Both the position numbers and the translations under genes were made by a program. Under the pieces are notes generated by a model. That model was not told the DNA's origin. It saw only the letters and a program-made list of their open reading frames with translations, and did no database searches. A DNA stretch of 64,000 nucleotides, from the sequence record NC_054928.1; one strand, 5' to 3'. Of this stretch, positions 1,388 through 62,482 are shown in pieces. Within the stretch, counting starts at the first letter, position 1; each line of letters opens with the position of its first letter. The stretch comes from Escherichia phage vB_vPM_PD112.

Positions 1388-1540
1388 TTAAACCTCAATT
1401 GATACATTCATATTTAACTTGTAACAGTAATAAACTCCAACCTAAAACAATAGTTGGAATCATAAGAGGAACCGTTACACTATAGTATATACTTATTATA
1501 ACCATCAAGATTAAAAGCAACACTGCTATAATTTTGCTTT

Positions 1541-1792
1541 TCATTCCTTCTCTCTGATGATAATTACCTGATTTGGCTGCGCAGACTTTTTAGTTTCACC
1601 TGCAATTGACCAAATAAATGTAATAAACCAACCAATAATTGACCAGTTAAACAGTAAAGATGTGAAAAAGATTCCTACTGTCGATTTTGACCCACGCATC
1701 AAGGCGATAAACCATGGAAGCATGTATATAATAATAGCCAACACGCCTGAAACTAAAACCATAAAAATTGAACCTGCTACTAAAGTTTCCAT
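1541..1792 (-). CDS. imm: superinfection immunity membrane protein Imm
   Basis: 83 aa, two hydrophobic segments, T4 Imm length and position. Confidence 0.85.
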   Translation of the reverse strand: METLVAGSIFMVLVSGVLAIIIYMLPWFIALMRGSKSTVGIFFTSLLFNWSIIGWFITFIWSIAGETKKSAQPNQVIIIREKE

Positions 1793-1799
1793 GTTTTCC

Positions 1800-2180
1800 T
1801 CACTTAGTCAAATTTTTTACACATGAATTATAAGAATTTACTACATACTCCATCGGAGCATTTTTACCAGTACGCCATTGGTAATTATTAGCCCAATTAG
1901 CCCAAAGCTCGGCGCAGTAGTTTTCAATTTTTTCTTCGCGTGTAATTACATCCGAATTACGATATGCTTGAGCAGATTCATCTGGACGAATAGCTTCGTC
2001 AAAATTCGCCTGCATTTGTTCTACTGTCTGTTTTGGAGCTTCTTTATAACACTTGACGTTAGGATTATAAAATTTGCTTGAACAGTTTACAATTTTTCCT
2101 ACATCAGACTGATTTACTACCGGTCCTTGAGCTACACAACCAGTAAGACCCAATGCAATAACCAAAATAGCGATTTTCAT
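1800..2180 (-). CDS. predicted lipoprotein (lipobox LTGC); probable ATG at 2180, track ORF extends to 2192 with TTG
   Basis: Signal peptide MKIAILVIALGLTGC; early promoter immediately upstream. Confidence 0.55.
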   Translation of the reverse strand: MKIAILVIALGLTGCVAQGPVVNQSDVGKIVNCSSKFYNPNVKCYKEAPKQTVEQMQANFDEAIRPDESAQAYRNSDVITREEKIENYCAELWANWANNYQWRTGKNAPMEYVVNSYNSCVKNLTK

Positions 2181-2214
2181 TTCATTCTCCAAATCCGTAT
2201 CAGTAGTTGATAGT

Positions 2215-2247
2215 TGTATAGTACCATGGAATAACAGGGATGTAAAC
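2215..2247 (-). promoter_or_regulatory. T4-type early promoter (-35 GTTTAC, 17 bp spacer, TG-extended -10 TACTATAC)
   Basis: Minus-strand read ...cacaaaactGTTTACatccctgttattccatgGTACTATACA; same motif recurs upstream of many minus-strand genes. Confidence 0.6.
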
Positions 2248-2330
2248 AGTTTTGTGAAAAAATTTTTAGGGAATCCAAAGGGTCCAGAATCATCTCTTTT
2301 TCATAAGTATAGATTTATATTACTTGTATG

Positions 2331-2351
2331 AAAAAGGGACCTGGAGGTCCC
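2331..2351 (-). terminator. stem-loop terminator downstream of gene 43
   Basis: gggacctggaggtccc inverted repeat followed by T-run on minus strand. Confidence 0.55.
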
Positions 2352-2364
2352 TAGATTTATTCTA

Positions 2365-5061
2365 TCAGCCAAACAGGAAGTCTAACGAAGCTTTTTCTTC
2401 ATAGTCCATGCCAGCCGATTCACACATACCCGCAAGCGGTTTAACAAACGATTTTTGGAACAAAGTTGAGTGGTCAATCCAAGATAGCACATCAGAACGA
2501 ATTTCTTTTGGAAGTTCTGTACCCGATGGCCAAGCAATGCACTTGTCACCAAATGGATTTCCCTCACGTAATGGAAGAACCATTACCTTATTTCCATCCA
2601 AAATTGGAGCTACACCTAGACCACTAACAGCTCGACGATAAGTTAGCACCCCACGAATATGGAACGGGCATTTAAATCCTGGCCAACCTTTATCATCATA
2701 TTTCGCTATATCATTCGCAGTTTTTACTTCAGCAATAACTTTATAGTCAAGTTGACGATATTCTTTCTCGAAGTTCTTGTAATATTCTTGGACAGACTCT
2801 TCACCTTCCTGAAGAATACGACGAATACTTTCTTCGAGAGCTTCTTGCACTGCTTTTGGTGTTGAACTCTGCTGAGTTTCCATACCCATGATTTTTAGAT
2901 GTGGTTCAGCAAATCGCTTATCTTCCATATCATAAACGTTCAGAGCATAACGTTTTTTCGCTTTCCAAAATCCACCGACACCCTTTGAACCAAGCGGAGG
3001 ACAAGAAATAGCTTCACGGTCCATATGCATCAGATGCTCGCGATTATTCATATAATCACATAACTCACGATATGCAACATCAATCATAGGTTCCATCTTT
3101 TTCTTACCGAACTGATTCATGAATTCAACTAAATCATTTTGTTCTTTAAAGCGGTCAAGACCTACTTTTTCAATAACTTTATCTACACAAACATATACCG
3201 AATCAGTATCACCCGCGGCGATGAAATCTTCATCATTAGTTCCGCATACTTTATTCAGATATTCGTTAATTTTACGAGCAATCCACTGAATACCAACTTG
3301 ACCAAAAATTGTGATAGCAGTAGCATTTCGCAAATCATAGTAACGGAAATGAATGTTACCAAGAGCACCATAAAGACTGTTAATAAGAATTTTACGGTTC
3401 AGCTGATTTGTGTTAGCAAGTGTAGCTGCTTTTTCACATTCTTCAATCAGACTATTGAGAACGGATTCGGTGTAATTCGATAGTTCATTTAAGAAATCAT
3501 CATTGAACTTAACATATCGTTCAACTTCTGGTTTAGTTGAACAAGACCCTGCGCCTTTCATAATAATCTTTTTAATAGCTTCGGCATTCATTTCTTCAGC
3601 GAACATTTTCTTTTTCCAATCTTTACGCTGGAAAAATACTTTAGCGATTTCCTTTGGAATGATACCTTCTTGATGCTTATCATACATCCATCCATTCGGA
3701 GAACAAGAATATTCATCACTCGGTTTAGGAGCTGTTCCTGCAATATATTCATGAATTGGATGAACTTTAAACTGCCCACGAATAGTCTCAGGACTAATGT
3801 TAACCTGACGAATAATGCTAGGATACAGAGACGTCAAGTCAAAACTCATAATATATCGACGAGCAATTGGTTTAGGTTCAAACACAAATGCACCCGGAAA
3901 ACTTTGTTTAACGTGCGAACCCTGTTGAGGAATAACCTTATGTTCACCTTTCAGTGAGTTAAAAATAATAGCGTCCCAAGTTTTAATAGGACTCATTACG
4001 CCAGAAAAAGGCATTTTAGCGTAATAAGACATACTTAAAACTAGATCGATAAACCCACGAATTTTATCAATTGCTTGAACTGATTCTACGTCAATGATGT
4101 TATAACTAATGTATCGTTGATGATTAGTCTCACGAAGTTTATTAATAGGACCATCATACGGTAATTTACCTTTTTTGGTTTCATGCTGAGCAACTGATTC
4201 CAAAGAGAATGACGGCAAATTAGTAAATGCGAATTTCTTATACAAATCTAAATAATCAAGAATAGATACGCCATCAATAGAATAAATTTCTTTGCTACCG
4301 TACACATTTTGAATTAGTTTAGATTTTACCCGACCGATTGGAGAGAAGCGTTTCATACTACGTTCGCCAAGAACCATTTTAACACGATTCATGATATACG
4401 GAACGTCAAATCCCTCAATATTCCAACCAGTAAAAATAGCAGGTCGTTTCTGTTCCCAGAGATTAATATATTCCATGAGCATATCACGCTCATTATCAAA
4501 TGGCATATAAATTACTCGGTCAAGAATTTCTTGAGGAACTTCATCACCACCTTCACAGTCAAGCTTAGCAGCTAACTTTGCATCCCATTTTGATACTGAA
4601 CCGTACATTGAATTCAAAAGGTCGAAAACATAAAAACGGTCATCAATTGAATCGTAATGAGTGATAGCATCAATTTCATATTCTGCTTTCATTGGGTCAG
4701 GAAATTTATCACCAGTAACCTCAATGTCACAGTTAGCTACACGAACAAATTTTCGGTCATAAACAATTTCTGAACCATATGTATCACTGATATAAGCGAG
4801 TTTAAAATCGTTCATACCGAGAGCTTCGAGACCGATGTCTTCCATTCGTTTCATCCAATCTCGTGCATCTTTCATTGATGGAAATTTTTGAGGAGCGCAA
4901 TTTTTACCATAAATGTCTTTGTATTTTGATTCTTCCTTACAGTGTCTAAACATAGTCGGAATATATTCTACTTCACGAGTACGTTCCTTTCCGTTTTCAT
5001 CAATATAACGTTCAACAATGTTATTTCCGACTGTTTCAATAGAGATATAAAATTCTTTCAT
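2365..5061 (-). CDS. 43: DNA polymerase (family B)
   Basis: 898 aa, T4 gp43 length and N-terminus MKEFYISIETVGNNIVERYIDENGKERT. Confidence 0.95.
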   Translation of the reverse strand: MKEFYISIETVGNNIVERYIDENGKERTREVEYIPTMFRHCKEESKYKDIYGKNCAPQKFPSMKDARDWMKRMEDIGLEALGMNDFKLAYISDTYGSEIVYDRKFVRVANCDIEVTGDKFPDPMKAEYEIDAITHYDSIDDRFYVFDLLNSMYGSVSKWDAKLAAKLDCEGGDEVPQEILDRVIYMPFDNERDMLMEYINLWEQKRPAIFTGWNIEGFDVPYIMNRVKMVLGERSMKRFSPIGRVKSKLIQNVYGSKEIYSIDGVSILDYLDLYKKFAFTNLPSFSLESVAQHETKKGKLPYDGPINKLRETNHQRYISYNIIDVESVQAIDKIRGFIDLVLSMSYYAKMPFSGVMSPIKTWDAIIFNSLKGEHKVIPQQGSHVKQSFPGAFVFEPKPIARRYIMSFDLTSLYPSIIRQVNISPETIRGQFKVHPIHEYIAGTAPKPSDEYSCSPNGWMYDKHQEGIIPKEIAKVFFQRKDWKKKMFAEEMNAEAIKKIIMKGAGSCSTKPEVERYVKFNDDFLNELSNYTESVLNSLIEECEKAATLANTNQLNRKILINSLYGALGNIHFRYYDLRNATAITIFGQVGIQWIARKINEYLNKVCGTNDEDFIAAGDTDSVYVCVDKVIEKVGLDRFKEQNDLVEFMNQFGKKKMEPMIDVAYRELCDYMNNREHLMHMDREAISCPPLGSKGVGGFWKAKKRYALNVYDMEDKRFAEPHLKIMGMETQQSSTPKAVQEALEESIRRILQEGEESVQEYYKNFEKEYRQLDYKVIAEVKTANDIAKYDDKGWPGFKCPFHIRGVLTYRRAVSGLGVAPILDGNKVMVLPLREGNPFGDKCIAWPSGTELPKEIRSDVLSWIDHSTLFQKSFVKPLAGMCESAGMDYEEKASLDFLFG

Positions 5062-5120
5062 AGATATTCCTTAGTTTATAGCCCGAGTTATTAGGCTCTT
5101 GATATATTATACTCCAATTA

Positions 5121-5136
5121 AGGGGCCGAAGCCCCT
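5121..5136 (-). terminator. GC-rich hairpin (gggccGAAGcccc type) downstream of regA
   Basis: aggggccgaagcccct perfect stem with GAAG loop; no strong U-run. Confidence 0.4.
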
Positions 5137-5139
5137 TGC

Positions 5140-5508
5140 TTAATTACCAATCGTATATTTAGGAACGAGTTTCCATTCATGTTTTTGTTTAAAAGAAATA
5201 ACTCGGAAGTTATTAGTTAAATCTTTCATAAAAGTTCTTTGACCAGGAACGATTTCAATTAGTCCCCAATCTTCTAATAGCCATGCAATCGAATCACGAC
5301 GAACTTCATCTTCTTCTGTCATTTCAACCTGGCGACCATCCATACGAAGCATTTCTTTAAAATGAACGATATAGTATAGTCCTTTTTTCTGGAGAATATG
5401 ACAGGATTGATACAGAACTTTATCTTTATTATTAGCAATTCCCATACGAGTCAGAGTTTCTTTAACTTTCAGAAAATCTTCAGGTTTTTTAAGAGTAATT
5501 TCAATCAT
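5140..5508 (-). CDS. regA: translational repressor RegA
   Basis: 122 aa, matches T4 RegA (MIEITLKKPEDFLKVKETLTRMGIANNKDK). Confidence 0.9.
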   Translation of the reverse strand: MIEITLKKPEDFLKVKETLTRMGIANNKDKVLYQSCHILQKKGLYYIVHFKEMLRMDGRQVEMTEEDEVRRDSIAWLLEDWGLIEIVPGQRTFMKDLTNNFRVISFKQKHEWKLVPKYTIGN

Positions 5509-5509
5509 T

Positions 5510-6073
5510 TTACCATTCCAATGCTAGTTTTTTGAGTTGTTTCTGTTCTTTTACATTCTTAGTCACTTCTTTCAAAAAATCATCCGTGACTAAACCTTTT
5601 AGTTCTTTTAATACTAAAGGAAGTTTTCCATTTTTAGTAAGAATTGATTTATAGTTAATTGCATCGTTTGTATTAACTTGATACCGCTTAGCAAGTAACT
5701 TAATAATCAATACTTCAGTAGAATCTTCGACCAGTTTTGCCCATTTACCATATCTTTTACCCCGAGGAACAGCAGCCATCAGATAATTAAAATGGGCTTC
5801 ATCGCTTAAACCTGATCCAATTAAATTCATAGCATATACAGCTGGCATGCACTCAGGAAATTGTGATAATGCATTCTCAACCATGTATTTTGAATAATCT
5901 TTTTGAGCAATAGAGCATTTAGTTTTATTATTAATAGCTCCAATTATTTCAAAAAACTCATTTTCAGCTTTTTCCTTAAAAGAATCAGCAGCAGATTGGA
6001 CAGCTGTCCAATCTTTTGAATACCAAGCAACTTGATGCTCGTTTAATTGAATATCATCTTCAAATAAGCTCAT
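5510..6073 (-). CDS. 62: clamp loader small subunit
   Basis: 187 aa, T4 gp62 length, between regA and 44. Confidence 0.85.
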
Positions 6074-6074
6074 A

Positions 6075-7034
6075 TCACTTCCACTGCATTTCGCATGCCA
6101 ATTGAATGAAAAGATATGCTAAATGTAATTCCGTATTAGCCGCAATTCCATGATACTGGTTATTTTCACCAACAATTTCATACATACGAATAATACTTTG
6201 CGGAGTTACGCGTGTATAAATTTCTTCGGCAAGTTTACCAACGAACCACGAATAATCAGCCGCATATTTTGGTGCTAAAGCTCTGAGTTGTTTAACATCT
6301 TTATTTTTGAGAGACTCAAGAACATCATCAATAGCACCACGATCGTTAGTAACCAGTGATAAAATACCAGCATCCAAAACACCTTTAGATGAATAACTAT
6401 CGAGCTCACCAATAGTTTTACGAAAATCAGGAAAATTCTTTTTAACCAAAGCTGCTACAACTTTCATATCAGCTATAGCAATTCCTTCACGCTTGCAGAT
6501 TTCAGTCAATCGACGAATCATCTGCTTCATCATTTCAATTTTATCTTCATCGGTCGGTTGACCGAATGTGATAACTCGACAGCGTGACTGAAGCGGTTTA
6601 ATAATACCATCAATATTGTTAGCAGTAATAATAATACTACAGTTTGAACTATAAGCTTCCATAAAGGAACGAAGATGTCGCTGAGATTCTGCTAACCCTG
6701 AACGGTCAAATTCATCAATAACGATTACTTTTTGACGACCATCAAATGAAGCGGCGCTGGCAAAATTAGTCAAAGGACCACGAACGAAATCAATTTTACA
6801 ATCTGATCCATTCACAAACATCATATCAGCATTTACATCATGACACAATGCTTTTGCTACAGTTGTTTTACCTGTTCCTGGAGAAGGAGAATGAAGAATA
6901 ATATGTGGAATCTTACCTTTACTTGTAATAGATTTAAAGGTTTCTTTATCAAAGGCGGGAAGAATACATTCATCGATAGTAGATGGACGATATTTCTGTT
7001 CAAGAATGTGTTCTTTTTCATTTACGGTAATCAT
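6075..7034 (-). CDS. 44: clamp loader AAA+ ATPase subunit; probable ATG at 7034 (MITVNEKEH)
   Basis: Walker [11 protein letters not shown], Walker B VIVIDEFD; T4 gp44 synteny. Confidence 0.9.
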
Positions 7035-7066
7035 AATTTCCTCATTCAAGTTTTAGTGTAAATTAT

Positions 7067-7084
7067 AAAGGGCCGAAGCCCTTT
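7067..7084 (-). terminator. hairpin terminator between genes 45 and 44
   Basis: aaagggccgaagcccttt inverted repeat immediately after gene 45 stop. Confidence 0.5.
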
Positions 7085-7085
7085 A

Positions 7086-7772
7086 TTAAAAATCGTGGGT
7101 AGAATCAGCTTCAAGAGCTACCACATAATTCGCGTGTTCACCTTCAAATTTAGCAGCACCTTGTTTACCTTTTGCCCAGAGCAGAAGTTTATAATTTCCT
7201 GGTTGCATTTTCATATTTGCCATATTGATAATGAAATTAAATGTATTTTCACCATCATAATCGCCAAGAGTCAAAGAATATTTAACACGAGTCAAAGCAG
7301 AATCTTCTACTTTATTAAAACCGTTAATTACGATTTTACCTTCTTTTACCGTGATAGCAATTGTATCAATTTGCAGACCACGAGATACACGCAACAGTTG
7401 TTGAAGGTCTTCAGCTTTAATTTCAGTAACAACAGATGCTACCGGGAATGGAATTGGTTTATTAGGAGCAACTACTGTACTCGGATCGGCTGCTGGCCAA
7501 AAAATTGTTGAGCGAGCATCAGCAATTTTAATATTACCATCTTCTGACTGGGAAATTTCTGCATCATCATTAACTAGAGACAGAATACCGAGAAAACCGT
7601 TCAAATCGTAAATTGCTACATCAAAATCAATAACGTCAGAAATATTTGCTTCAGCATAAGTTGTACCATTAACTGCACGAGTCATAATAAATTGACCAGA
7701 TTTAAGCATAATACCGGAGTTAATAGTAGCGAAATTTTTCAAAATATTCAGTGTATCTTTAGACAGTTTCAT
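7086..7772 (-). CDS. 45: sliding clamp
   Basis: 228 aa, T4 gp45 length and sequence. Confidence 0.9.
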   Translation of the reverse strand: MKLSKDTLNILKNFATINSGIMLKSGQFIMTRAVNGTTYAEANISDVIDFDVAIYDLNGFLGILSLVNDDAEISQSEDGNIKIADARSTIFWPAADPSTVVAPNKPIPFPVASVVTEIKAEDLQQLLRVSRGLQIDTIAITVKEGKIVINGFNKVEDSALTRVKYSLTLGDYDGENTFNFIINMANMKMQPGNYKLLLWAKGKQGAAKFEGEHANYVVALEADSTHDF

Positions 7773-7801
7773 GTAATTTCCTTCAATTCAAATGAGATTT
7801 A

Positions 7802-7827
7802 ATTTTATAACTAATTTAATAAAGCAA
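7802..7827 (-). promoter_or_regulatory. T4 middle promoter (MotA box TTGCTTTA, 12 bp spacer, -10 TAAAAT) upstream of gene 45
   Basis: Minus-strand read TTGCTTTAttaaattagttaTAAAAT. Confidence 0.5.
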
Positions 7828-8217
7828 TTAACGATTAAAATCAGCAGCAATTGTTTCCGCAACAATTTGAGCAGCAACAATTAGACGTTCATCTGCATTA
7901 CCGCAATAACCATCTTCAAGGCGTTCACCACATGAAGTCATAATAAATTTGGCACCAGCGTTTAGGGATTCTGTAGTATGTTTGCGCATTAGTTCAATCC
8001 ATTTATCACTCACTTCACGATCGATAGCTTCATAATACGCATGACGAGCAGGTGCAGATTTAATTTTGTTCTGAATAACTTCCATTGCGTTATCAGAAAG
8101 AGACAAAACCCATGCTCGACGAATTTTATTTTGGTTTTGTGGATTTGAATCAGAACGCACGTGTTTTGGCTGAATATCTTTTACATCAACAGTATAATTC
8201 ACAGTAATTTTAGTCAT
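7828..8217 (-). CDS. rpbA: RNA polymerase binding protein RpbA
   Basis: 129 aa, T4 position between 45 and 46. Confidence 0.8.
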
Positions 8218-8226
8218 AATACACCT

Positions 8227-8415
8227 TTAGTCATAATAATCAGTAACAGTCCAAGCTTCATTTCTATTGGACATTATTTTTGTATATTCTGATTTAAATG
8301 CATTCCTAAGCATAGATTCAGTAACTATATGCTCTTCATTAGAAAAATTATTTCTCAGAATATATCGTTTTATTTCAGGAATAGTTAATAGATGCTGTCC
8401 AGTTGAATATTCCAT
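8227..8415 (-). CDS. hypothetical protein (T4 45.2 position)
   Basis: 62 aa ORF, synteny. Confidence 0.5.
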   Translation of the reverse strand: MEYSTGQHLLTIPEIKRYILRNNFSNEEHIVTESMLRNAFKSEYTKIMSNRNEAWTVTDYYD

Positions 8416-8470
8416 GTTTTTCCTCCATAGAGATTATACTCTAATAAATTAAAGCATAATCTCTTATAAA

Positions 8471-10153
8471 TTAAACCATTACAGTAAATCGACCAACTTT
8501 CTTCATTTGAAGATGCTGACCATATTCTTGCGGGTCATGGTCTTTATGCGAAATTATAAAGACATTAGTGTTTTTCATTGAATTTATAATATTAGCTACA
8601 CCTTTAATACCTTCGGCATCAAATGACCCATCAAACACTTCATCAAGAATTAATGTACTAATACTAACACCAGATACGATAGAAGCAATATCACGCCAAG
8701 TAAATAAAAGAGCAATATCAATTCGTGCCTTTTCGCCTTCACTAAATGAAGCATAACTAAAATCTTCACGACCACGGGATTTAATTGTCTCATTAAATTC
8801 TTCATCTAATGTAAACACATAATCCGCTTCCATTATTTTAAGATAATGGTTAATCTGCTTATTAAATAATGGAATGTACTTTTTAATAATAGCACCTTTA
8901 ATACCAGAATCTTTGAGCATATCAGTCAAAATTCCTCGGTGGTATTTTTCCATTACTAAATTAGTTTTTGTCTTAACAATTTTATCAAGTTCTTCTTGAA
9001 GCAGTGCTATTTCATCAGCATGGTCAATAAACTCAGAAGATGCTTTTTCTATAGCCGCTTTAACCTTTTTGGCTTTATCTACCGTCGTGATTAGAGATTG
9101 CTTTTTATTGCGAATATCATTTGCCAACGTCTGCTGGGTTTTAATATTATCTCGGTATTCATCAACAAGAACTTTTAAATTATCACGATGCGTTGAAAGC
9201 TGTTCAAATGAATGCGTACATTCAGAAACTTTATCTTTAATTTTAGAAACAACTTTATCACCGGAACTTAATTGTGACAAACAGGTTGGACATAATCCAC
9301 CTTCGTGATACATATTAATGACTTTATTATACGAATCAATTTTTGATTTAATTAAAAATGCTTCTTGACCAATTTTATTAAATGCATCAGTCGGGTCTTC
9401 ATCTAAAACAATATTAACTAATCTTTCGTTAGCTTCTTCTATTTCCGATTTTAGTGTTCTAGCTTCTTTTGCCAAATCATCATACATATTTTGCAGACGA
9501 GTAAGGTTTTCACCAGACAATTTTTTCTGGCGTTCAACATTATCGTTATATATTTTAATTTGTTGGATAATACTATCTTTTTTAACATCAAGCACTTGGT
9601 TTTGTGAATTTAATTCACGTATTAGTGCTTTATTAAGCTTATCCATTTCAGCTAATGTTCCTACTTCGAGCAGGTCTTCGACGAGTTTTCTTCTTGCAGG
9701 AGTGGATAGGCCCATAAAAGGGGTATATCCAGCCGTGCCGAGTACGACGATCTGTTTGAAACTGGCGTATGACATTCCGATAAGCTGTTCAAATTCTGCT
9801 TGGAAATCTTTACTGCTGGCAGATTCATTAAGACGTGTACCGTTAACGGTGATTTCGAAAACATTTGGTTTTTGTCCTCTTTTGATATAGTACTTTTTCT
9901 CATCATATTCCATCCACAGTTCAACTAAAAGTTCTTTCTTATTTGTGCTGTTTATTAATTGGCCTTTCTTTACATCACGAAATGGCTTGCCAAAAAGCCC
10001 AAATGTGATGGCTTCTAACATAGTAGACTTACCACCGCCATTTCGTCCAGTAATAAGAGTTTTTTGAACCTTATCTAGTTGAATGTCAATCCCATTTTGA
10101 CCAACTGACATTATATTTTTATATTTTACTCTATTAAGTTTAAAATTCTTCAC
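8471..10153 (-). CDS. 46: recombination endonuclease subunit (Rad50/SbcC-like ATPase)
   Basis: 560 aa; P-loop GRNGGGKST, long coiled-coil, C-terminal ABC signature; T4 gp46 length. Confidence 0.9.
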   Translation of the reverse strand: MKNFKLNRVKYKNIMSVGQNGIDIQLDKVQKTLITGRNGGGKSTMLEAITFGLFGKPFRDVKKGQLINSTNKKELLVELWMEYDEKKYYIKRGQKPNVFEITVNGTRLNESASSKDFQAEFEQLIGMSYASFKQIVVLGTAGYTPFMGLSTPARRKLVEDLLEVGTLAEMDKLNKALIRELNSQNQVLDVKKDSIIQQIKIYNDNVERQKKLSGENLTRLQNMYDDLAKEARTLKSEIEEANERLVNIVLDEDPTDAFNKIGQEAFLIKSKIDSYNKVINMYHEGGLCPTCLSQLSSGDKVVSKIKDKVSECTHSFEQLSTHRDNLKVLVDEYRDNIKTQQTLANDIRNKKQSLITTVDKAKKVKAAIEKASSEFIDHADEIALLQEELDKIVKTKTNLVMEKYHRGILTDMLKDSGIKGAIIKKYIPLFNKQINHYLKIMEADYVFTLDEEFNETIKSRGREDFSYASFSEGEKARIDIALLFTWRDIASIVSGVSISTLILDEVFDGSFDAEGIKGVANIINSMKNTNVFIISHKDHDPQEYGQHLQMKKVGRFTVMV

Positions 10154-10413
10154 AAAAGATTCCTTTTAATGTATCTTTTAGACCATTCTATCATATCATC
10201 ATAATCTAAAAAGTATTCATCAAATTCAGCCATGCAAACAACACCTTGTGCTGCTTTTGATGTGATATAAATTATTCCAACATATCTAGAATCTTCTTCG
10301 GTGTAATCAATATTTGCTATGAATTCATCGTTAATGTCAAATGTCGAAAACTTCACAGTATGCATCCTTAATACAAGATACAGCCATATCTCGTAATGAT
10401 TTAGGTGTGTCAT
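10150..10413 (-). CDS. hypothetical protein (46.1 position); start uncertain
   Basis: 87 aa ORF overlapping neighbour. Confidence 0.4.
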   Translation of the reverse strand: MTHLNHYEIWLYLVLRMHTVKFSTFDINDEFIANIDYTEEDSRYVGIIYITSKAAQGVVCMAEFDEYFLDYDDMIEWSKRYIKRNLL

Positions 10414-10600
10414 TATCTAAAATGTTGAAGTTAAAAGATACAGCCCAGTCAGTGCATACCGTAACCTTTTTAATACAATTATCTTCAACCTCTAGCGGTT
10501 CAAACCAATATTCAATAATTTCTTTATGCCCAATATCATCTTTTACTTCGCATTCAAAATGCTGACTCATCATAACATTTTTAAATTCATCAAAAGTCAT
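10337..10600 (-). CDS. hypothetical protein (46.2 position)
   Basis: 87 aa ORF. Confidence 0.4.
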   Translation of the reverse strand: MTFDEFKNVMMSQHFECEVKDDIGHKEIIEYWFEPLEVEDNCIKKVTVCTDWAVSFNFNILDNDTPKSLRDMAVSCIKDAYCEVFDI

Positions 10601-11616
10601 TGTGTTGCCTCTACATATAACTGATTTGCATATTGAATAAGTGCTTCGCGGTCAGAATCAGTGATGTCTGGAATTGCATTAATGTATTCTTCCATCAACG
10701 TCTGAAGAGATTGAACTTCTACTTCTTCGCTATCATCTGACTCGACAGAGTTATCAATCTTTGACACAACTCGTAATGAATGCACAACTTTTTCTAGTTC
10801 AGATTCGAACTTCGTTAGATTTTTGTCTACTTCAGTTACTATAACACGTACTGATAGATTTGTAAAATCTTTATAGTCAATTTTTCCTTTAAATGGATAA
10901 TGAATTCTACGATGCCAGGTAGTATTGTTTGGAATAAATTCCATTCGTTCTGTTTCTGTATCAAACATCCAGAACCCACGAGGGTCATTCTCGTCACCTG
11001 CAGTTAGTGTCCATGGTGTCCCAATATATCTGACGTTAGCAGCCTCAGAGATAGTATGGAAGTGACCAGACCACACTTCTTTATAAGTCTTAAGGAAATC
11101 AGGTTCAAGACCGTGAGATTTCATTCCTTTATAAAAATAAAATCCATTCAGTTCCCAGTGACCAACACAAAAGGAAGCAGATGAAGTTTTAATATGTTCA
11201 AGAATTTCACCGGTATTTTCTTCACACATCCAAGGAATTAAATCAATCAAACACCCGTCAAAATCTACTGTAGTAGGCTTATCATATACTTTAACATTAG
11301 GATATTTAGCCAAAAGCTCAGTAGAAGCATTTGGATGCATTACATTTTTATAGTGGAGATCGTGATTTCCTACAATAGTATGTAATGTGATTCCAGCGTC
11401 ATCAAGCATTTGAACTATTTCACGGGCAAACTCCATAGTTTTATGCGTGATCGCTTTTCGTACATCAAAAATATCACCGTATTGAATCCAGGTAGTAATT
11501 CCATTTTTCTTAGAATATTCTATTGCTTGTTTAATTCCATCAATTTGAATACCGCGAATCCATTCATCATCAGCTTTAACGCCTAAATGCCAATCACCTA
11601 AATTTAAAATTTTCAT
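10597..11616 (-). CDS. 47: recombination nuclease subunit (Mre11/SbcD-like phosphoesterase)
   Basis: 339 aa; metallophosphatase motifs (GDWH, GNHD); T4 gp47 length. Confidence 0.9.
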   Translation of the reverse strand: MKILNLGDWHLGVKADDEWIRGIQIDGIKQAIEYSKKNGITTWIQYGDIFDVRKAITHKTMEFAREIVQMLDDAGITLHTIVGNHDLHYKNVMHPNASTELLAKYPNVKVYDKPTTVDFDGCLIDLIPWMCEENTGEILEHIKTSSASFCVGHWELNGFYFYKGMKSHGLEPDFLKTYKEVWSGHFHTISEAANVRYIGTPWTLTAGDENDPRGFWMFDTETERMEFIPNNTTWHRRIHYPFKGKIDYKDFTNLSVRVIVTEVDKNLTKFESELEKVVHSLRVVSKIDNSVESDDSEEVEVQSLQTLMEEYINAIPDITDSDREALIQYANQLYVEATQ

Positions 11617-11777
11617 ATATCAAGAACCGTCATTGAAATGCAAAATAAAATTATTGAAATAAACCCATCTGGTGTGCTAAAGAACCCAATCCAACACGCT
11701 CTGGTGAACAAATAAAACGCGAGAAAAAGTATCACATATCCAAGAAATATCATTATATCAAACTCCGTATAAAGCTA

Positions 11778-17808: not shown

Positions 17809-18047
17809 AATAATATCCAATTTTTCCAAGCTTCATCAGTAGAATTACAGCGTTTTAGTATAAGATGTCTAGAAACTTTTATGGCATTTGAGCACTTTTT
17901 AATTGAATCATATTTTAATAAAGCGGCACGAATCAATGTTCCTGACCCCATATAACCGTCATTTATGTTATCGGTGCTATGCGCACCGATATATTCCTTT
18001 GAATTAATTATATTTGTTATTTTATAAATTATATAATACCTATGCAT
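17805..18047 (-). pseudogene. truncated GIY-YIG homing endonuclease remnant (segB-like N-terminal half only)
   Basis: YIIYKITNIINSKEYIGAHSTDNINDGYMGSG parallels segB N-terminus; 80 aa, no DNA-binding domain; fills nrdG-nrdD gap. Confidence 0.5.
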
Positions 18048-45379: not shown

Positions 45380-46045
45380 TTAAAATTTCATTTTTCGACC
45401 TTTAAACCATCCTTCTGGAATTGGGTCAGTTTTCTTAATACGTTTAGAAACTTTTTCATCTAATGAATGAATCCACATCATGCCAAATTGGGAATTCTTT
45501 TCACCTTGTTGGTGTTTATTTCTGGCGTGAGATTCTTTCATTTTATTAATAGTTTCAGGAGTATGATGCTTATTTAAAAATCTGCTATTATTTAAAAATT
45601 TTTCCCTGTATTCAGGAGTTGACCACAAGCGTTTAAATACATTTGAACCATTTTTACGATATTTTTCTTGAAGTAAAATATCATTTTTAAAACGTGACTT
45701 AAACGATTTAGCTCCTTTTAAACTAGCGTCTTTCTTCTGATTTAGCATCTCAGGAATATTTATATGATCCCATCCACCTTCACCGCCAAGTTTTAAATTA
45801 TACACATCAGGTCTATTTAAAAACTCTTCTGTGACAATATTTTTCTCGGCTTCAAGCATAGATTCTTTATCGTCAAAATATTCTAATATTTCTTTAGAAA
45901 AATTTTCTATACCATACCTGTCTTGGGCTCTTTTTAATAATTTACCAGAACCCATATATCCATCATCTAAATTTTCGGTAGAATGCACACCAATATAAAT
46001 TTTATTATTAATTTTATTTGTTATTTTATAAGCGTAATGGAACAT
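45380..46045 (-). CDS. segB: GIY-YIG homing endonuclease SegB
   Basis: 221 aa; YKITNKINNKIYIGVHST...GYMGSG; inside the tRNA cluster as in T4. Confidence 0.85.
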   Translation of the reverse strand: MFHYAYKITNKINNKIYIGVHSTENLDDGYMGSGKLLKRAQDRYGIENFSKEILEYFDDKESMLEAEKNIVTEEFLNRPDVYNLKLGGEGGWDHINIPEMLNQKKDASLKGAKSFKSRFKNDILLQEKYRKNGSNVFKRLWSTPEYREKFLNNSRFLNKHHTPETINKMKESHARNKHQQGEKNSQFGMMWIHSLDEKVSKRIKKTDPIPEGWFKGRKMKF

Positions 46046-51948: not shown

Positions 51949-51956
51949 TATAAATA
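51949..51956 (+). promoter_or_regulatory. late promoter TATAAATA for gene 53
   Basis: Exact TATAAATA about 30 bp upstream of the gene 53 ATG. Confidence 0.6.
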
Positions 51957-51984: not shown

Positions 51985-52575
51985 ATGCTCTTTACATTTT
52001 TTGATCCGATTGAATATGCGGCCAAAACGGTGAATAAAAACGCGCCGACTATTCCTATGACAGATATTTTTAGAAACTATAAAGACTATTTTAAACGCGC
52101 TCTTGCGGGATATCGCTTACGTACTTATTATATCAAAGGTTCACCACGCCCGGAAGAATTAGCAAATACTATATATGGAAATCCGCAGTTGTATTGGGTT
52201 TTATTGATGTGTAATGATAATTATGATCCGTATTATGGATGGATTACTTCGCAAGAAGCTGCTTATCAAGCATCTATACAAAAATACAAAAACGTAGGTG
52301 GAGACCAAATAGTATATCATGTGAATGAGAATGGTGAAAAATTTTATAATTTAATATCATACGATGATAATCCATATGTTTGGTATGACAAAGGCGATAA
52401 AGCTAGAAAATATCCTCAATATGAAGGAGCACTTGCTGCGGTCGATACGTATGAAGCTGCTGTTCTTGAAAATGAAAAACTTCGTCAAATAAAAATAATA
52501 GCAAAATCAGACATCAATTCATTTATGAACGACCTTATACGTATAATGGAGAAATCTTATGGAAATGATAAGTAA
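51985..52575 (+). CDS. 53: baseplate wedge protein gp53
   Basis: 196 aa, T4 gp53 length. Confidence 0.9.
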   Translation: MLFTFFDPIEYAAKTVNKNAPTIPMTDIFRNYKDYFKRALAGYRLRTYYIKGSPRPEELANTIYGNPQLYWVLLMCNDNYDPYYGWITSQEAAYQASIQKYKNVGGDQIVYHVNENGEKFYNLISYDDNPYVWYDKGDKARKYPQYEGALAAVDTYEAAVLENEKLRQIKIIAKSDINSFMNDLIRIMEKSYGNDK

Positions 52576-54331
52576 TAACCTTAATTGGTTTGTTGGTGTT
52601 GTTGAAGATAGAATGGACCCATTAAAATTAGGTCGTGTTCGTGTTCGTGTGGTTGGTCTGCATCCACCTCAAAGAGCGCAAGGCGATGTAATGGGTATTC
52701 CAACCGATAAATTACCATGGATGTCAGTTATTCAACCTATAACTTCTGCAGCAATGTCTGGAATTGGAGGTTCTGTTACAGGACCAGTAGAAGGAACTAG
52801 AGTTTATGGTCATTTTTTAGACAAATGGAAAACTAACGGAATTGTCCTTGGCACGTATGGTGGGATAGTTCGCGAAAAACCTAATAGACTTGAAGGATTT
52901 TCTGACCCAACTGGGCAGTATCCTAGACGTCTAGGAAATGATACTAACGTATTAAACCAAGGCGGAGAAGTAGGATATGATTCGTCTTCTAATATTATCC
53001 AAGATAGCAATCTAGACACTGCGATAAATCCTGATGATAGACCATTATCAGAAATTCCAACTGATGATAATCCAAATATGTCAATGGCTGAAATGCTTCG
53101 CCGTGATGAAGGATTAAGACTAAAAGTTTATTGGGATACAGAAGGATATCCGACAATTGGTATTGGTCATCTTATCATGAAGCAGCCAGTTCGTGATATG
53201 GCCCAAATTAATAAAGTTTTATCAAAACAAGTTGGTCGTGAAATTACCGGAAATCCAGGTTCTATTACAATGGAAGAAGCGGTAACTTTATTTGAACGTG
53301 ATTTAGCTGATATGCAACGTGACATTAAATCACATTCTAAAGTTGGCCCAGTTTGGAAAGCAGTTAATCGTTCTCGTCAAATGGCATTAGAAAATATGGC
53401 ATTTCAGATGGGTGTTGGCGGTGTAGCTAAATTTAACACAATGTTAACTGCTATGTTAGCCGGAGATTGGGAAAAAGCATATAAAGCCGGTCGTGATTCA
53501 TTGTGGTATCAACAAACAAAAGGCCGTGCATCCCGTGTTACCATGATTATTCTTACAGGCAATTTGGAATCATACGGTATTGAAGTGAAAACGCCAGCTA
53601 GGTCTTTGTCTGCAATGGCTGCTACTGTAGCAAAGTCTTCTGACCCGGCTGACCCTCCTATTCCGAATGATTCGAGAATTTTATTCAAAGAACCTGTTTC
53701 TTCATATAAAGGTGAGTATCCGTATGTTCACACAATGGAAACTGAAAGCGGTCATATTCAGGAATTTGACGATACCCCGGGACAAGAACGATACAGATTA
53801 GTTCATCCGACTGGAACATATGAGGAAGTATCACCGTCAGGAAGAAGAACAAGAAAAACTGTTGATAATTTGTATGATATAACAAATGCTGATGGTAATT
53901 TTTTGGTAGCCGGTGATAAAAAGACTAACGTCGGTGGATCAGAAATTTATTACAACATGGATAATCGTCTCCACCAAATAGATGGAAGCAATACAATATT
54001 TGTGCGTGGCGACGAAACGAAAACTGTTGAAGGTAATGGAACTATCCTAGTTAAAGGTAATGTTAAAGTAGTTATTCAAGGAACAGCAGATATAACTGTT
54101 GAACAGGAAGCATACATAACTGTTGAAAAAGACACGACTGTTAATGTTAACCAAAACGCAGACATAAGTGTTAAAAATAAAGCAACTGTTAATGCTGAAA
54201 ATATGGATGTCAACGTTGAGCAAGATTTAAATTTTTCAGCGACAAATATTAATTTAAGTGCATCTAATACTGTTCATATGGATGGCGGGGTTCTTTCTAA
54301 AGTATCAGGTGGAAACGTACAGGTTGGTTAA
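52559..54331 (+). CDS. 5: baseplate hub / tail lysozyme gp5 with divergent C-terminal beta-helix
   Basis: N-terminal OB and lysozyme domains match T4 gp5; 590 aa versus 575 in T4 and a different C-terminal sequence. Confidence 0.9.
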   Translation: MEMISNNLNWFVGVVEDRMDPLKLGRVRVRVVGLHPPQRAQGDVMGIPTDKLPWMSVIQPITSAAMSGIGGSVTGPVEGTRVYGHFLDKWKTNGIVLGTYGGIVREKPNRLEGFSDPTGQYPRRLGNDTNVLNQGGEVGYDSSSNIIQDSNLDTAINPDDRPLSEIPTDDNPNMSMAEMLRRDEGLRLKVYWDTEGYPTIGIGHLIMKQPVRDMAQINKVLSKQVGREITGNPGSITMEEAVTLFERDLADMQRDIKSHSKVGPVWKAVNRSRQMALENMAFQMGVGGVAKFNTMLTAMLAGDWEKAYKAGRDSLWYQQTKGRASRVTMIILTGNLESYGIEVKTPARSLSAMAATVAKSSDPADPPIPNDSRILFKEPVSSYKGEYPYVHTMETESGHIQEFDDTPGQERYRLVHPTGTYEEVSPSGRRTRKTVDNLYDITNADGNFLVAGDKKTNVGGSEIYYNMDNRLHQIDGSNTIFVRGDETKTVEGNGTILVKGNVKVVIQGTADITVEQEAYITVEKDTTVNVNQNADISVKNKATVNAENMDVNVEQDLNFSATNINLSASNTVHMDGGVLSKVSGGNVQVG

Positions 54332-54332
54332 T

Positions 54333-56369
54333 ATGAATTATAACGAAATTGTTGATGAATTAGTTGATACCATACAATCAGCTTGTTCAATTATTCCCGA
54401 AGGTTATTATAGACGAGTTAAATGGGAATTATACAATCCCAATAAAGAAATGATTCAACCCGATAATGGGGTTGAATGGGACACTGAAATTATTAAATTA
54501 GATACCCATCTTTACACCGAAAATCCATTTGGTCATTCTTCTGATACATTTACTGAATCATCTGATGGAGAAACCCAAACTGGTGTTTTTTGTCATAAAA
54601 TCGGCGTGTATTTTCCAACTCAAACTGCGTTAGAAGATTACGTTGAACAAATTGGTGCAACTTTACTTCCAGGTAATACTTGGTATGGTGCTGATTTATC
54701 GAAACGTGAATTTTTTAAAACTGAAATTGAATATGATATGTATCGCATTGAAAATCGCGGAGGTACATGGCATCATACGGGTCCTAGAATAGATGCTAGG
54801 ACAATGATCGGTGTTAACAATGACTATACAATGTATGTTAACTTTAACGGTTTAGGAGATTATAGAAGAGCATATTTAAAATATTATGAAGATAAACCAT
54901 GCACATATGTCGGTTTAACACTAAATTTAAATATAGATACATCAATTCCCGGTATTCCTTATTCACCTCCATCAATTATTGGAGAGCTTCCACTTAATGC
55001 AATTTCATGCGTTAATTTTACTGCCCAATTTCCATACAATGGCTTAACATCTGCAATTATTGAGGCTTGGAACACCTCAAGAGATTCATTTAAACTATAT
55101 TGGGATATGTTGCCTGGTATGCCGGCAATTAGCGGAAGTGATTTTGAAAAATATTTTAATTCGGCATATACACATTTATCTGTAGCAATGGAAGAGCTTG
55201 GAAATTCGGCAATTGCCATGTGTCAATATGTTCAGCAACAAGCCTTTATGGTTTTTAAAAATTCTGTTTCACAAGTTCTAAATATTGTCGGTGGCGGATG
55301 GGATTTATTAAAAAGTTTTTTACCTAAAATAACAATAATGGGCATATCTATTGATATTGAAGATTTATGTACATCAACAGATGGTGTTCAAAAATTGAAG
55401 GAAACCTTTGAAAATTTTAATCTGGAAGATACTATTAGTTCAATTTATTCTGCAATGGGTTCTGCATATGACTATTCTATAGAACGCGTTAAAATGTATT
55501 CGCGGGATTTAGTTGATGCAATAACAGATTTATATGATTGGGCCTGGTCAAAATTAATGATGGCCGGTGTCGCTTTATCAAAATTATGTGTTGATTTAGC
55601 ACAAATCTGGAGCATGCCACCAATTATTCCAAATCCAGTGTGGTCTGTTATCACTTTAGTGAAGGAAATGATGAAACAAATTCCTCCATTAGATATGATT
55701 ATGTCAGGTAATTTTCCTGGATTTACTGCTTCTGATGTATATCAGATGGTTATGTCTATCGTATCTGAAAAAATTAAACAAGTTTATACTAAAATAGAAT
55801 CATTAAAAACCCAAGCATTGGATGTATGGAATGAAATTAAACTAAAAACACAGGAATATAAAAAGCAAACGATTGAATTTAAACAATATTTATCAGGAAT
55901 GGCTGAAAAGGTTGAAGATGAAATAACTATAGCAAAAAAGAAAGCGTTACAAGAAGCTGAATCCGCTTTAAATGTTTTAAAGGATAAATATAACAGTATT
56001 AAAGACTTGATAAAAAATAAACAGATTTCTGTGTCTGATGTATTAGATTTAGCTTTGACTGAATTTCGAAAAATTCCATTAATTTCACAAATGGAATCAT
56101 TATTATCTTTAGCTGGAGCATCTATCGATGATATAATGAAAGTATATGAAAATAGCGTTACTAAAGCAAAATCATTATATCACGAATTCACCGATGGCGC
56201 TCGGTCAATGAAAGATCTATGCAAATCATTATACAATCAAATTTCGACTTTATGTTTGAGTAAGGTTGTGCAATGGATTAATAAAATGCTTGGAATATTT
56301 GGATTAAGTATTACATTTCCAACAGTATCAATATGCATTCCATGCTTAAAAACTCCTATGAGGAATTAA
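54333..56369 (+). CDS. unassigned large late-strand protein (678 aa) between genes 5 and 6
   Basis: ATG 2 nt after gp5 stop; stop 1 nt before gene 6 ATG; internal hydrophobic segments and a Lys/Glu-rich coiled-coil; no match to any T4 baseplate protein I know. Confidence 0.6.
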   Translation: MNYNEIVDELVDTIQSACSIIPEGYYRRVKWELYNPNKEMIQPDNGVEWDTEIIKLDTHLYTENPFGHSSDTFTESSDGETQTGVFCHKIGVYFPTQTALEDYVEQIGATLLPGNTWYGADLSKREFFKTEIEYDMYRIENRGGTWHHTGPRIDARTMIGVNNDYTMYVNFNGLGDYRRAYLKYYEDKPCTYVGLTLNLNIDTSIPGIPYSPPSIIGELPLNAISCVNFTAQFPYNGLTSAIIEAWNTSRDSFKLYWDMLPGMPAISGSDFEKYFNSAYTHLSVAMEELGNSAIAMCQYVQQQAFMVFKNSVSQVLNIVGGGWDLLKSFLPKITIMGISIDIEDLCTSTDGVQKLKETFENFNLEDTISSIYSAMGSAYDYSIERVKMYSRDLVDAITDLYDWAWSKLMMAGVALSKLCVDLAQIWSMPPIIPNPVWSVITLVKEMMKQIPPLDMIMSGNFPGFTASDVYQMVMSIVSEKIKQVYTKIESLKTQALDVWNEIKLKTQEYKKQTIEFKQYLSGMAEKVEDEITIAKKKALQEAESALNVLKDKYNSIKDLIKNKQISVSDVLDLALTEFRKIPLISQMESLLSLAGASIDDIMKVYENSVTKAKSLYHEFTDGARSMKDLCKSLYNQISTLCLSKVVQWINKMLGIFGLSITFPTVSICIPCLKTPMRN

Positions 56370-56370
56370 A

Positions 56371-58350
56371 ATGACAACTCCTGTAAATTATCAATTAACA
56401 AGAACAGCAAATGCTATTCCCGAGATATTCGTCGGGGGTACATTTGCTGAAATAAAACAAAACCTCATTGAATGGCTTAATGGCCAAAATGAATTTTTGG
56501 ATTATGATTTTGAAGGCTCAAGATTAAACGTTCTGTGTGACCTTTTAGCTTATAATACATTATACATTCAGCAGTTTGGTAATGCTGCCGTATATGAAAG
56601 CTTTATGCGTACTGCTAATTTGCGTAGTTCAGTAGTTCAAGCTGCACAAGATAATGGATATTTACCTACTTCAAAATCAGCTGCTCAAACTGAAATTATG
56701 CTAACTTGCACAGACGCATTGAATAGAAATTACATTACTATTCCTCGCGGTACTCGCTTTTTAGCATATGCAAAAGATACTTCCGTTAATCCTTATAACT
56801 TTGTATCTACCGAAGATGTTATTGCTATTCGCGATAAAAATAACCAATATTTTCCGCGTTTAAAATTAGCCCAGGGACGTATAGTAAGAACTGAAATCAT
56901 TTATGATAAATTAACACCTATTATCATTTATGACAAAAATATAGATAGAAACCAAGTTAAGCTGTATGTTGATGGAGCAGAATGGATTAACTGGACAAGA
57001 AAGTCAATGGTTCATGCTGGTTCTACATCAACAATTTACTACATGCGTGAAACTATTGATGGAAATACTGAATTTTATTTTGGTGAAGGTGAGATTTCCG
57101 TTAATGCGGCAGAAGGAGCATTGACCGCTAATTATATTGGAGGTCTTAAGCCTACCCAGAACTCTACGATTGTTATTGAGTACATCAGTACTAACGGCGC
57201 GGATGCGAATGGCGCAGTCGGATTTTCATACGCAGATACATTAACAAATATAACTGTCATCAATATTAATGAAAATCCAAACGATGACCCAGATTTTGTT
57301 GGGGCAGATGGCGGCGGTGATCCAGAAGATATTGAGCGTATTCGCGAATTGGGTACTATTAAACGTGAAACCCAGCAACGATGCGTAACTGCGACTGACT
57401 ATGATACATTCGTTTCAGAGAGATTTGGTTCTATTATTCAAGCAGTTCAGACTTTCACTGATTCTACTAAACCTGGTTATGCATTTATTGCTGCTAAACC
57501 TAAATCAGGTCTGTATTTAACTACTGTACAGCGTGAAGATATTAAAAATTATCTCAAAGACTATAATTTAGCTCCTATTACACCATCAATTATTTCTCCT
57601 AATTACCTTTTTATTAAGACTAATTTAAAAGTCACATATGCTTTAAATAAGCTGCAAGAATCCGAACAGTGGCTCGAAGGTCAAATAATTGATAAAATTG
57701 ATCGTTATTATACCGAAGATGTAGAAATTTTTAATTCATCTTTCGCTAAATCTAAGATGTTGACATATGTAGATGATGCAGATCATTCTATCATTGGCTC
57801 ATCCGCGACAATTCAAATGGTACGTGAAGTACAAAACTTCTATAAAACGCCTGAAGCGGGTATTAAATACAATAATCAAATAAAAGATCGTTCTATGGAA
57901 TCTAATACGTTTTCATTTAATTCCGGACGAAAGGTTGTAAATCCTGATACTGGCTTAGAAGAAGATGTATTATATGACGTTCGTATAGTATCAACAGACC
58001 GAGATTCTAAAGGAATTGGTAAAGTTATTATTGGTCCATTTGCTTCTGGCGATGTTACAGAAAATGAAAACATTCAGCCGTATACAGGCAACGATTTTAA
58101 CAAATTAGCAAATTCTGATGGACGCGACAAATACTATGTTATCGGTGAAATAAATTATCCAGCTGATGTTATTTACTGGAATATCGCTAAAATTAATTTA
58201 ACATCTGAAAAATTTGAAGTTCAGACTATTGAATTATATTCTGACCCAACCGATGATGTTATCTTTACTCGCGATGGTTCACTGATTGTATTTGAAAATG
58301 ACTTACGTCCACAATACTTAACTATCGATTTGGAGCCTATATCACAATGA
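56371..58350 (+). CDS. 6: baseplate wedge protein gp6
   Basis: 659 aa (T4 gp6 is 660), synteny. Confidence 0.9.
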   Translation: MTTPVNYQLTRTANAIPEIFVGGTFAEIKQNLIEWLNGQNEFLDYDFEGSRLNVLCDLLAYNTLYIQQFGNAAVYESFMRTANLRSSVVQAAQDNGYLPTSKSAAQTEIMLTCTDALNRNYITIPRGTRFLAYAKDTSVNPYNFVSTEDVIAIRDKNNQYFPRLKLAQGRIVRTEIIYDKLTPIIIYDKNIDRNQVKLYVDGAEWINWTRKSMVHAGSTSTIYYMRETIDGNTEFYFGEGEISVNAAEGALTANYIGGLKPTQNSTIVIEYISTNGADANGAVGFSYADTLTNITVININENPNDDPDFVGADGGGDPEDIERIRELGTIKRETQQRCVTATDYDTFVSERFGSIIQAVQTFTDSTKPGYAFIAAKPKSGLYLTTVQREDIKNYLKDYNLAPITPSIISPNYLFIKTNLKVTYALNKLQESEQWLEGQIIDKIDRYYTEDVEIFNSSFAKSKMLTYVDDADHSIIGSSATIQMVREVQNFYKTPEAGIKYNNQIKDRSMESNTFSFNSGRKVVNPDTGLEEDVLYDVRIVSTDRDSKGIGKVIIGPFASGDVTENENIQPYTGNDFNKLANSDGRDKYYVIGEINYPADVIYWNIAKINLTSEKFEVQTIELYSDPTDDVIFTRDGSLIVFENDLRPQYLTIDLEPISQ

Positions 58351-62474: not shown

Positions 62475-62482
62475 TATAAATA
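62475..62482 (+). promoter_or_regulatory. late promoter TATAAATA for gene 9
   Basis: Exact TATAAATA about 25 bp upstream of the gene 9 ATG. Confidence 0.6.

Follow-up and report, generated by a model that had tools for sequence, protein, structure and literature searches.

The gene between baseplate hub gene 5 and wedge gene 6 of Escherichia phage vB_vPM_PD112 (NC_054928.1) is a 678-codon open reading frame (ORF), here called gene X, in the 64,000-nucleotide (nt) stretch that was analysed (the window). The surrounding genome is that of a T4-like phage. Gene X and the end of gene 5 depart from T4 together, in a cassette in which gene X encodes a putative spike-tip protein. The features of the locus are the following:

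52559..54064, + strand: T4-type section of gene 5 (gp5 residues 1-502), 97-100% identical to T4 and comprising the OB-fold, the lysozyme and the greater part of the beta-helix
54065..54331, + strand: swapped tip of the beta-helix encoded by gene 5 (gp5 503-590, with the stop codon), ending ...GGVLSKVSGGNVQVG
54333..56369, + strand: gene X, 678 amino acids (aa), ATG at 54333 to TAA at 56367-56369, an orf205w-type putative spike-tip protein, phrog_5296
56361..56383, + strand: right crossover zone, the ribosome-binding site and first ~4 codons of gene 6, T4-like onward
56371..58350, + strand: gene 6 (baseplate wedge), 99% identical to T4 gp6
51949..51956, + strand: late promoter consensus TATAAATA, upstream of gene 53 (positions of the pattern)

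Gene X is tightly spaced on both sides. The stop codon of gene 5 (TAA, 54329-54331) lies 1 nt before its ATG, and the ATG of gene 6 at 56371 lies 1 nt past its stop. The mechanical ORF reaches upstream to a GTG at 54258; all 59 aligned homologues have an MNY or MDY start, matching the ATG at 54333. Codon comparisons show purifying selection on the gene: of its codon differences from phage G8, 10 are synonymous and 4 non-synonymous, and relative to Dhakavirus E33 the proportions of non-synonymous and synonymous differences, pN and pS, are 0.19 and 0.76.

The TATAAATA motif is the late promoter of T4, as established for that phage. The next + strand copy after 51949 is found only at 62475, and no + strand terminator-like sites were found between 51993 and 58500. 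Because 51949 is the sole + strand promoter copy before 62475, genes 53-5-X-6-7 are probably transcribed together as a single late unit, and the promoter position together with the lack of an internal + strand terminator places gene X within this baseplate unit. A first-pass annotation, made by a model from the sequence alone, had described a 678-codon gene filling the 5-6 gap, tightly coupled on both sides and probably co-expressed with the late baseplate operon, and the promoter, the terminator-free + strand and the 1-nt gaps agree with it. An antisense (- strand) terminator-like hairpin lies inside the 5' end of gene X (54453-54477); it is probably due to chance, because the regional count of such sites matches the expectation from shuffled sequence.

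The cassette and its T4 backbone

At an identity of at least 99%, a megablast search finds gene X in eight phage records (G8, SG1, BYEP01, sutha, JEP6, F26 and RefSeq duplicates), of which G8 is classified in Tequatrovirus. DNA synteny between the window and T4 (96%) stops at 54065 and restarts at 56361. Both crossovers were placed by three-way nucleotide alignments. The left crossover lies inside gene 5, in a ~50-nt block conserved in T4 and Dhakavirus (...GTTAAAGGTAATGTTA/AAGTAG...), and sets the first difference of gp5 from T4 at residue 503. The right crossover falls in the zone around the start of gene 6, and gp6 begins M-T-T-P in the window, M-A-T-P in E33 and M-A-N-T-P in T4. The moved block comprises gp5 residues 503-590 and gene X, and replaces T4 gp5 residues 503-575, 5.1, segC, 5.3 and 5.4.

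Protein comparisons place the break at the same point. In 30-column blocks, the identity of gp5 between the window and T4 is 97-100% as far as alignment column 510, and then 40%, 20% and 14%; past the T4-like part, the similarity of the window gp5 to RB43 gp5 rises up to 37-46%, with 41% identity over the tip (last 85 aa). Relative to T4, identity is 99% for the gp5 body, 27% for the gp5 tip (last 85 aa) and 99% for gp6, with X absent in T4. Relative to E33, the gp5 tip (last 85 aa) is 91% and X 73% identical, but the gp5 body only 66% (gp6 70%), so on these identities the donor of the cassette is Dhakavirus-like.

In T4, gp5 residues 484-575 are the fragment that carries gp5.4, and the residues corresponding to the swapped tip are the platform to which gp5.4 binds (PMC12407873). 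As read from the alignments, the sole T4 baseplate part exchanged with gene X is therefore the platform under the tip. Since only the gp5 tip moved with gene X, it is probably the one lineage-specific partner of the gene, which is what a protein attached to the spike end would lead one to expect. The swap is a natural counterpart of the structural biologists' grafting experiment: phages of the G8 group are a natural graft, with a T4 particle except for gp5 503-590 and the putative tip gene, and the determinant of tip specificity is narrowed to 88 gp5 residues. The defined T4-backbone chimera is what is new here, the orf205w family and its proposed role being already in the literature. An apparent second, independent swap in Shigella phage vB_SdyM_006 was rejected, this phage being a Bragavirus, from a lineage that natively carries gene X.

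The T4 interval between genes 5 and 6 contains 5.1 (164 aa), segC (140 aa), 5.3 (56 aa) and 5.4 (PAAR, 97 aa). Searches of the window by tblastn with T4 5.1, 5.3 and 5.4 give no match (E > 0.7), and T4 segC matches solely seg-like genes elsewhere in the window, its interval copy not being present between genes 5 and 6 here. The segC-like genes encode GIY-YIG homing-endonuclease homologues at 45770-46042 (- strand, 55% identical to T4 SegC) and 17910-18044 (- strand, 51%). A tblastn search with T4 gp5.4 over the window and the other 106 kb of the genome of the near-identical phage G8 gives no match at E <= 1; the same search on T4 as control gives 5e-63, so that a T4-type gp5.4 would be seen, although a very divergent PAAR could escape.

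The gene X product likewise matches no Pfam or NCBIfam family, and therefore lacks a recognizable PAAR or homing-endonuclease domain; GIY-YIG, HNH and LAGLIDADG domains are absent in searches of Pfam, NCBIfam and PHROGs. Alignment of the gene X family profile with T4 gp5.4 by hhalign gives a probability of 0.1%, and the small conical beta-fold of PAAR proteins is not seen in the product. A cryptic PAAR is thus ruled out by Pfam, hhalign and the fold search. The first-pass annotation had correctly described the T4 interval as one of small ORFs, including the ~97-aa PAAR gene 5.4, and its statements that the phage has no PAAR-type gene 5.4, and gene X no PAAR or homing-endonuclease motif, are borne out by these searches. 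It had also considered that gene X might be a frameshift fusion of small T4 ORFs, which is ruled out because T4 5.1, 5.3 and 5.4 are unmatched in the window.

The orf205w family and its gp5 partner

In PHROGs, the gene X product falls into phrog_5296 ('unknown function', E = 0, residues 1-673). It is 41.9% identical by tblastn to RB43 orf205w (YP_239181, 99% coverage, E = 1e-157), and the 59 aligned homologues have 41 invariant columns in common. By these matches gene X is a member of the orf205w family, which has already been described; the first-pass annotation had left the gene unassigned, and the family in fact carries a published putative assignment (2025 preprint, PMC12407873). Full-length homologues (40-72% identity) are detected by tblastn in 214 phage records. 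Carriers include RB43, RB16-type phages, Lw1, Miller, KP15 and other Slopekvirus, pseudo-T-evens of Cronobacter and Enterobacter, Bragavirus (PM2, phiP4-3) and Dhakavirus (E33, LHE83, Bp7). The gene order 5-X-6 is found in all five lineages inspected (RB43, KP15, PM2, E33 and vB_SdyM_006).

The family is uniform in architecture and length (660-764 aa). A search of 5.8 billion proteins yields 65 family clusters with full-length members of 664-764 aa, and just 8 full-length clusters at 50% identity come out of an exhaustive profile search over 1.84 billion representatives. The most distant homologue, a metagenomic one with 29% identity, lies behind a gp5 that ends in ...FTGGTVSVG. Its contig (ERZ23488527 scaffold_330, 1-8531) has the order gp5-X-gp25-gp6-gp7-gp8, in which gene 25 adjoins the spike-tip gene; T4 has gene 25 in a separate cluster.

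Gene X co-occurs with a particular type of gp5 tip. The last 85 residues of the window gp5 are found by tblastn in 213 phage records, against 214 for gene X, and the counts by organism name are the same for both under every listed name (Klebsiella 113, Escherichia 25, Enterobacter 20, Cronobacter 18, Citrobacter 13, Proteus 7, Salmonella 4, Shigella 3, Raoultella 2 and Pseudotevenvirus 2). All gp5 C-termini examined in gene X carriers end in ...GGxV(Q/S)VG, or ...GANVQVG in PM2; that of T4 ends in ...GSRIDIG. No PAAR was found in any gene X-carrying genome checked, and in these genomes gene X and the PAAR protein gp5.4 appear to be mutually exclusive. PAAR has been regarded as the near-universal spike tip. 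Among T4 relatives the orf205w family is the main exception to it, with ~214 records compared to 1,422 found by tblastn with T4 gp5.4.

The family was recently considered by Mattenberger, Leiman, Belin et al. (bioRxiv 2025, revised 2026), who solved the T4 gp5-gp5.4 complex (PMC12407873). Gene 5.4 is missing from RB43, RB16 and Lw1, and in RB43 the 5.1-5.4 locus is taken by orf205w (~690 residues), with residues 1-220 mixed alpha/beta and the remainder helical (PMC12407873). A reconstruction of the RB43 baseplate at 17.7 Å shows a tip density larger than that of T4, into which an AlphaFold model of orf205w, termed low-confidence by the authors, can be fitted (PMC12407873). The non-PAAR tip role of orf205w was proposed from the missing 5.4, synteny and the extra tip density (PMC12407873); the assignment is published but provisional, and rests so far on one low-resolution map. 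The other mention of orf205w found in the literature is a 2006 table giving a non-significant Pfam hit.

Gene X resembles orf205w in its slot after gene 5 and before gene 6, in a genome without 5.4, and in its ~200-residue N-terminal alpha/beta domain followed by an all-helical remainder. The gp5 proteins of RB43 and the window also share a ...GGxVQVG-type C-terminus and a beta-helix ~15 residues longer than that of T4. Unlike orf205w, gene X lies in a genome that is otherwise 96-99% T4 (Tequatrovirus, G8 group) and not in a Pseudotevenvirus, and it arrived by a defined recombination with just gp5 503-590, its nearest relatives being those of Dhakavirus.

Predicted architecture of the gene X product

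AlphaFold2 modelling of the product with a 60-sequence alignment gives a predicted local distance difference test score (pLDDT) of 87.2 and a predicted template modelling score (pTM) of 0.80, a confident model compared to the low-confidence one of orf205w in the preprint (PMC12407873). The following regions are distinguished:

54333..54932, + strand: N-terminal alpha/beta domain (residues 1-200), acidic, with invariant C18 and C190, without structural neighbour in the PDB
54933..55184, + strand: residues 201-284, strands and short helices, confident solely in the full-length model
55185..56297, + strand: residues 285-655, a helical domain whose long helices are 285-319, 389-426, 466-520, 529-566 and 622-655
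55503..55772, + strand: conserved stretch (residues 391-480), hydrophobic helices with PPxxPNPxW and GNFPGFT motifs
55773..56132, + strand: Lys/Glu-rich coiled coil (residues 481-600), including residues 481-570, where the family varies most
56283..56351, + strand: C-terminal hydrophobic segment (residues 651-673), Kyte-Doolittle score 1.76, with the conserved C668

When the N-terminal domain is modelled alone, residues 20-200 keep a pLDDT above 90 and residues 200-284 collapse; because residues 201-284 are confident in the full-length model, this stretch probably packs against the helical or the C-terminal part. A net charge of -17 makes the N-terminal third acidic. The two best-conserved stretches are residues 391-480 and 631-660, the latter being the helix before the C-terminus, and the hydrophobic tail is predicted to include a 10-residue C-terminal beta-strand (664-673). 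Residues 261-480 are 44% hydrophobic, and hydrophobic segments are found at 404-426 and, strongest, at 651-673, with 24% Lys+Glu in residues 481-600. This composition agrees with the hydrophobic segments and long Lys/Glu-rich coiled coil read from the sequence at first pass. C18 (54384-54386) and C190 (54900-54902) are invariant in the family, and C226 (55008-55010) and C668 (56334-56336) nearly so; it is possible that these cysteines form a metal site or disulfides, by analogy with other spike tips. A PDB sequence profile search gives nothing significant, and a Foldseek search with the model finds no similar solved structure (best E = 0.087, template modelling score <= 0.18).

The helical region has some resemblance to tape-measure proteins. 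Four tape-measure PHROGs are matched (E = 1e-5 to 1.5e-4), and of the six matches outside the family that the profile search of 1.84 billion proteins brings up, four are bona fide tape measures (E = 3e-7 to 2e-4). The tape measures P0073, P0075 and P0077 score 36-46 bits, versus 4-13 for reversed sequences and at most 7 for shuffles. In the alignments, the hydrophobic helices of X pair with a transmembrane-like stretch, followed by the coiled coil. Tape-measure proteins (e.g. phrog_167, 1272, 4070 and 8927) share with X a long helical region, hydrophobic helices and a charged coiled coil, but lack the N-terminal alpha/beta domain, and the E-values (~1e-5 in PHROGs) are far from family level. 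The likeness is weak yet probably non-random, and one of kind rather than of family membership. One further match, P0076, is not a clear tape measure but also passes reversal (36.8 versus 8.1 bits). It is a 1,254-aa bacterial protein (8001-11765 on a 3.68 Mb chromosomal contig). Its match covers residues 481-670 of X, among them the conserved C-terminal helix, and has a composition bias of zero; its neighbours are WD40 and FHA genes. Being chromosomal, apolipoprotein-like and without phage context, it was set aside as uninformative about X.

Proposed role and alternatives

We consider it likely that X, a 75 kDa non-PAAR protein, caps the variant gp5 needle in place of the 97-residue gp5.4 of T4. 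PAAR tips (PDB 4KU0 and 4JIV, PF05488), including T4 gp5.4, occur in the same 5-6 neighbourhood and would have the same job, the capping and sharpening of the gp5/VgrG beta-helix. In the proposed sequence of events, X would be made late and assembled with the hub, would sit where the gp5 beta-helix trimer ends bluntly at its C-terminus, and would go foremost through the outer membrane when the sheath contracts. It would then enter the periplasm with gp5, as T4 gp5.4 and P2 gpV suggest by analogy (PMC12407873). The T4 spike tip is reported to meet the inner-membrane-anchored PpiD in the periplasm (PMC7600766). At first pass, a tip-associated or an injected cargo protein had been suggested. The tip part is supported by the cassette with the gp5 tip, the co-occurrence, the absence of PAAR and the RB43 density; the cargo part is not, the searches having revealed neither an enzymatic nor a toxin domain.

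Several points weigh against placing X at the tip, which we infer here as others have in the literature. The authors of the preprint say that the tip is 'possibly encoded by' orf205w, and co-expression of orf205w with the gp5 fragment failed (PMC12407873). The N-terminal domain has no fold similarity to any known tip in the fold search. Virion proteomics covering the gene X family, RB43, Slopekvirus or Dhakavirus was not found in the literature that could be searched, a Jiaodavirus paper has no bearing on the question, and virion mass spectrometry of Morganella phage MP1 reports no protein between gp2 and gp6; the MP1 proteome is uninformative, because gp5 was missed too, and gene X was seen in the related vB_Mm5, MP1 itself not being checked. 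Co-transfer with the gp5 tip would also follow from a role of X as a factor dedicated to the folding or assembly of that tip. As regards the tape-measure likeness, the match P0074 fails the reversed-sequence control, and X has no detectable relation to the phage's own tape measure gp29 (hhalign probability 0.2%), so that kinship with gp29 is ruled out.

For a protein capping the gp5 needle, an additional function at the inner membrane may be considered. The tape-measure-like hydrophobic helices and the hydrophobic C-terminus might act on the inner membrane, a tentative suggestion to which we give perhaps one chance in a handful or slightly better, and the membrane-active parts could then help to open it or to dock to it for DNA entry. 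The fuller version, in which X would be a tip-mounted module, tape-measure-like or alpha-pore-former-like, whose residues 391-480 and 651-673 refold into or onto the inner membrane and open a route for DNA, is speculative and rather doubtful. The alpha-helical pore formers and translocators Hbl-B (2NRJ), YaxB, AhlC and IpaB/SipB are among the nearest known systems. If true, X would be a PAAR alternative that merges 'tip' and 'channel-former' in one protein, and T-even phages would swap the two tip solutions as a cassette needing just the last 88 gp5 residues.

Alternatively, X could be a virion 'pilot' protein in the hub or the lumen of the tail tube, tape-measure-like and ejected ahead of the DNA as a conduit. 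The weak reciprocal similarity of its helical region to tape measures, with hydrophobic helices set against a transmembrane-like stretch, would suit such a role, as would the name 'tail length tape measure' given to homologues by some annotators. However, G8 keeps a normal gp29 tape measure (gp215) at its usual place, to which X is not detectably related, and X lies outside the tape-measure gene position. A lumen protein would also touch gp27, gp29, gp48, gp54 and gp19, none of which was swapped, the outer tip of gp5 alone having been exchanged, and the extra density of RB43 sits outside, at the spike tip (PMC12407873). We regard the pilot role as unlikely.

The shared inheritance of X and the gp5 tip suits a chaperone and its client as well as it suits two structural partners, and no virion proteome found in the searches contains X; X might then be a non-structural late chaperone or assembly factor for the variant gp5 tip, which in the virion would have no cap or would cap itself. 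This is quite improbable, given that the tip density of the RB43 virion is larger than that of the T4 5.4am virion (PMC12407873), that 678 residues in a confident, compact two-domain model would be large for the folding of an 88-residue segment, and that in all X-carrying genomes checked, which lack PAAR, the spike would stay untipped.

It is very improbable that X is an injected effector or cargo, i.e. a toxin or host-takeover enzyme carried on the spike like the PAAR/VgrG effectors of type VI secretion systems (T6SS). The position beside the spike gene does resemble T6SS effector loci, and a large protein with a distinct N-terminal domain could use that domain as an adaptor, but no catalytic or toxin domain is found in Pfam, NCBIfam, PHROGs, PDB sequence searches or fold searches, and the family, uniform in length, lacks the C-terminal polymorphism typical of effectors. 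An artefact, in the form of an ORF arising by chance or of small T4 ORFs joined by frameshift, can be dismissed with near certainty in view of the 214 records and 65 protein clusters with homologues, the purifying selection, the dissimilarity to T4 5.1, 5.3 and 5.4, and the confident fold prediction.

The proposed capping of the gp5 needle by X bears on how contractile-tail phages complete envelope penetration after puncture of the outer membrane. T4 genetics, antibodies and atomic baseplate models are directly usable for phages of the G8 group, and therefore it is straightforward to test the assignment of X to the tip and to ask how PAAR and non-PAAR tips differ in function (e.g. on deep-rough lipopolysaccharide hosts).

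A consistent name could replace 'hypothetical protein' and the erroneous 'tape measure' in databases. The naming of gene X homologues varies between 'tail length tape measure' (Roth22, Roth88, M26a), 'baseplate hub structural protein' (KP1) and 'hypothetical protein', and 'tape measure' is wrong as a name for them. Several T4 gp5.4 homologues carry the label 'phospholipase' in public records. In phT4A (NC_055712.1) the gene X homologue is annotated as N-terminally truncated (485 aa). A natural deletion of the N-terminal domain was rejected, since a run of 100 N (2400-2500 of its locus) lies inside the gene; the true start (MIMDYESII...) is found directly after gp5, and the truncation is an annotation artefact of a partial genome.

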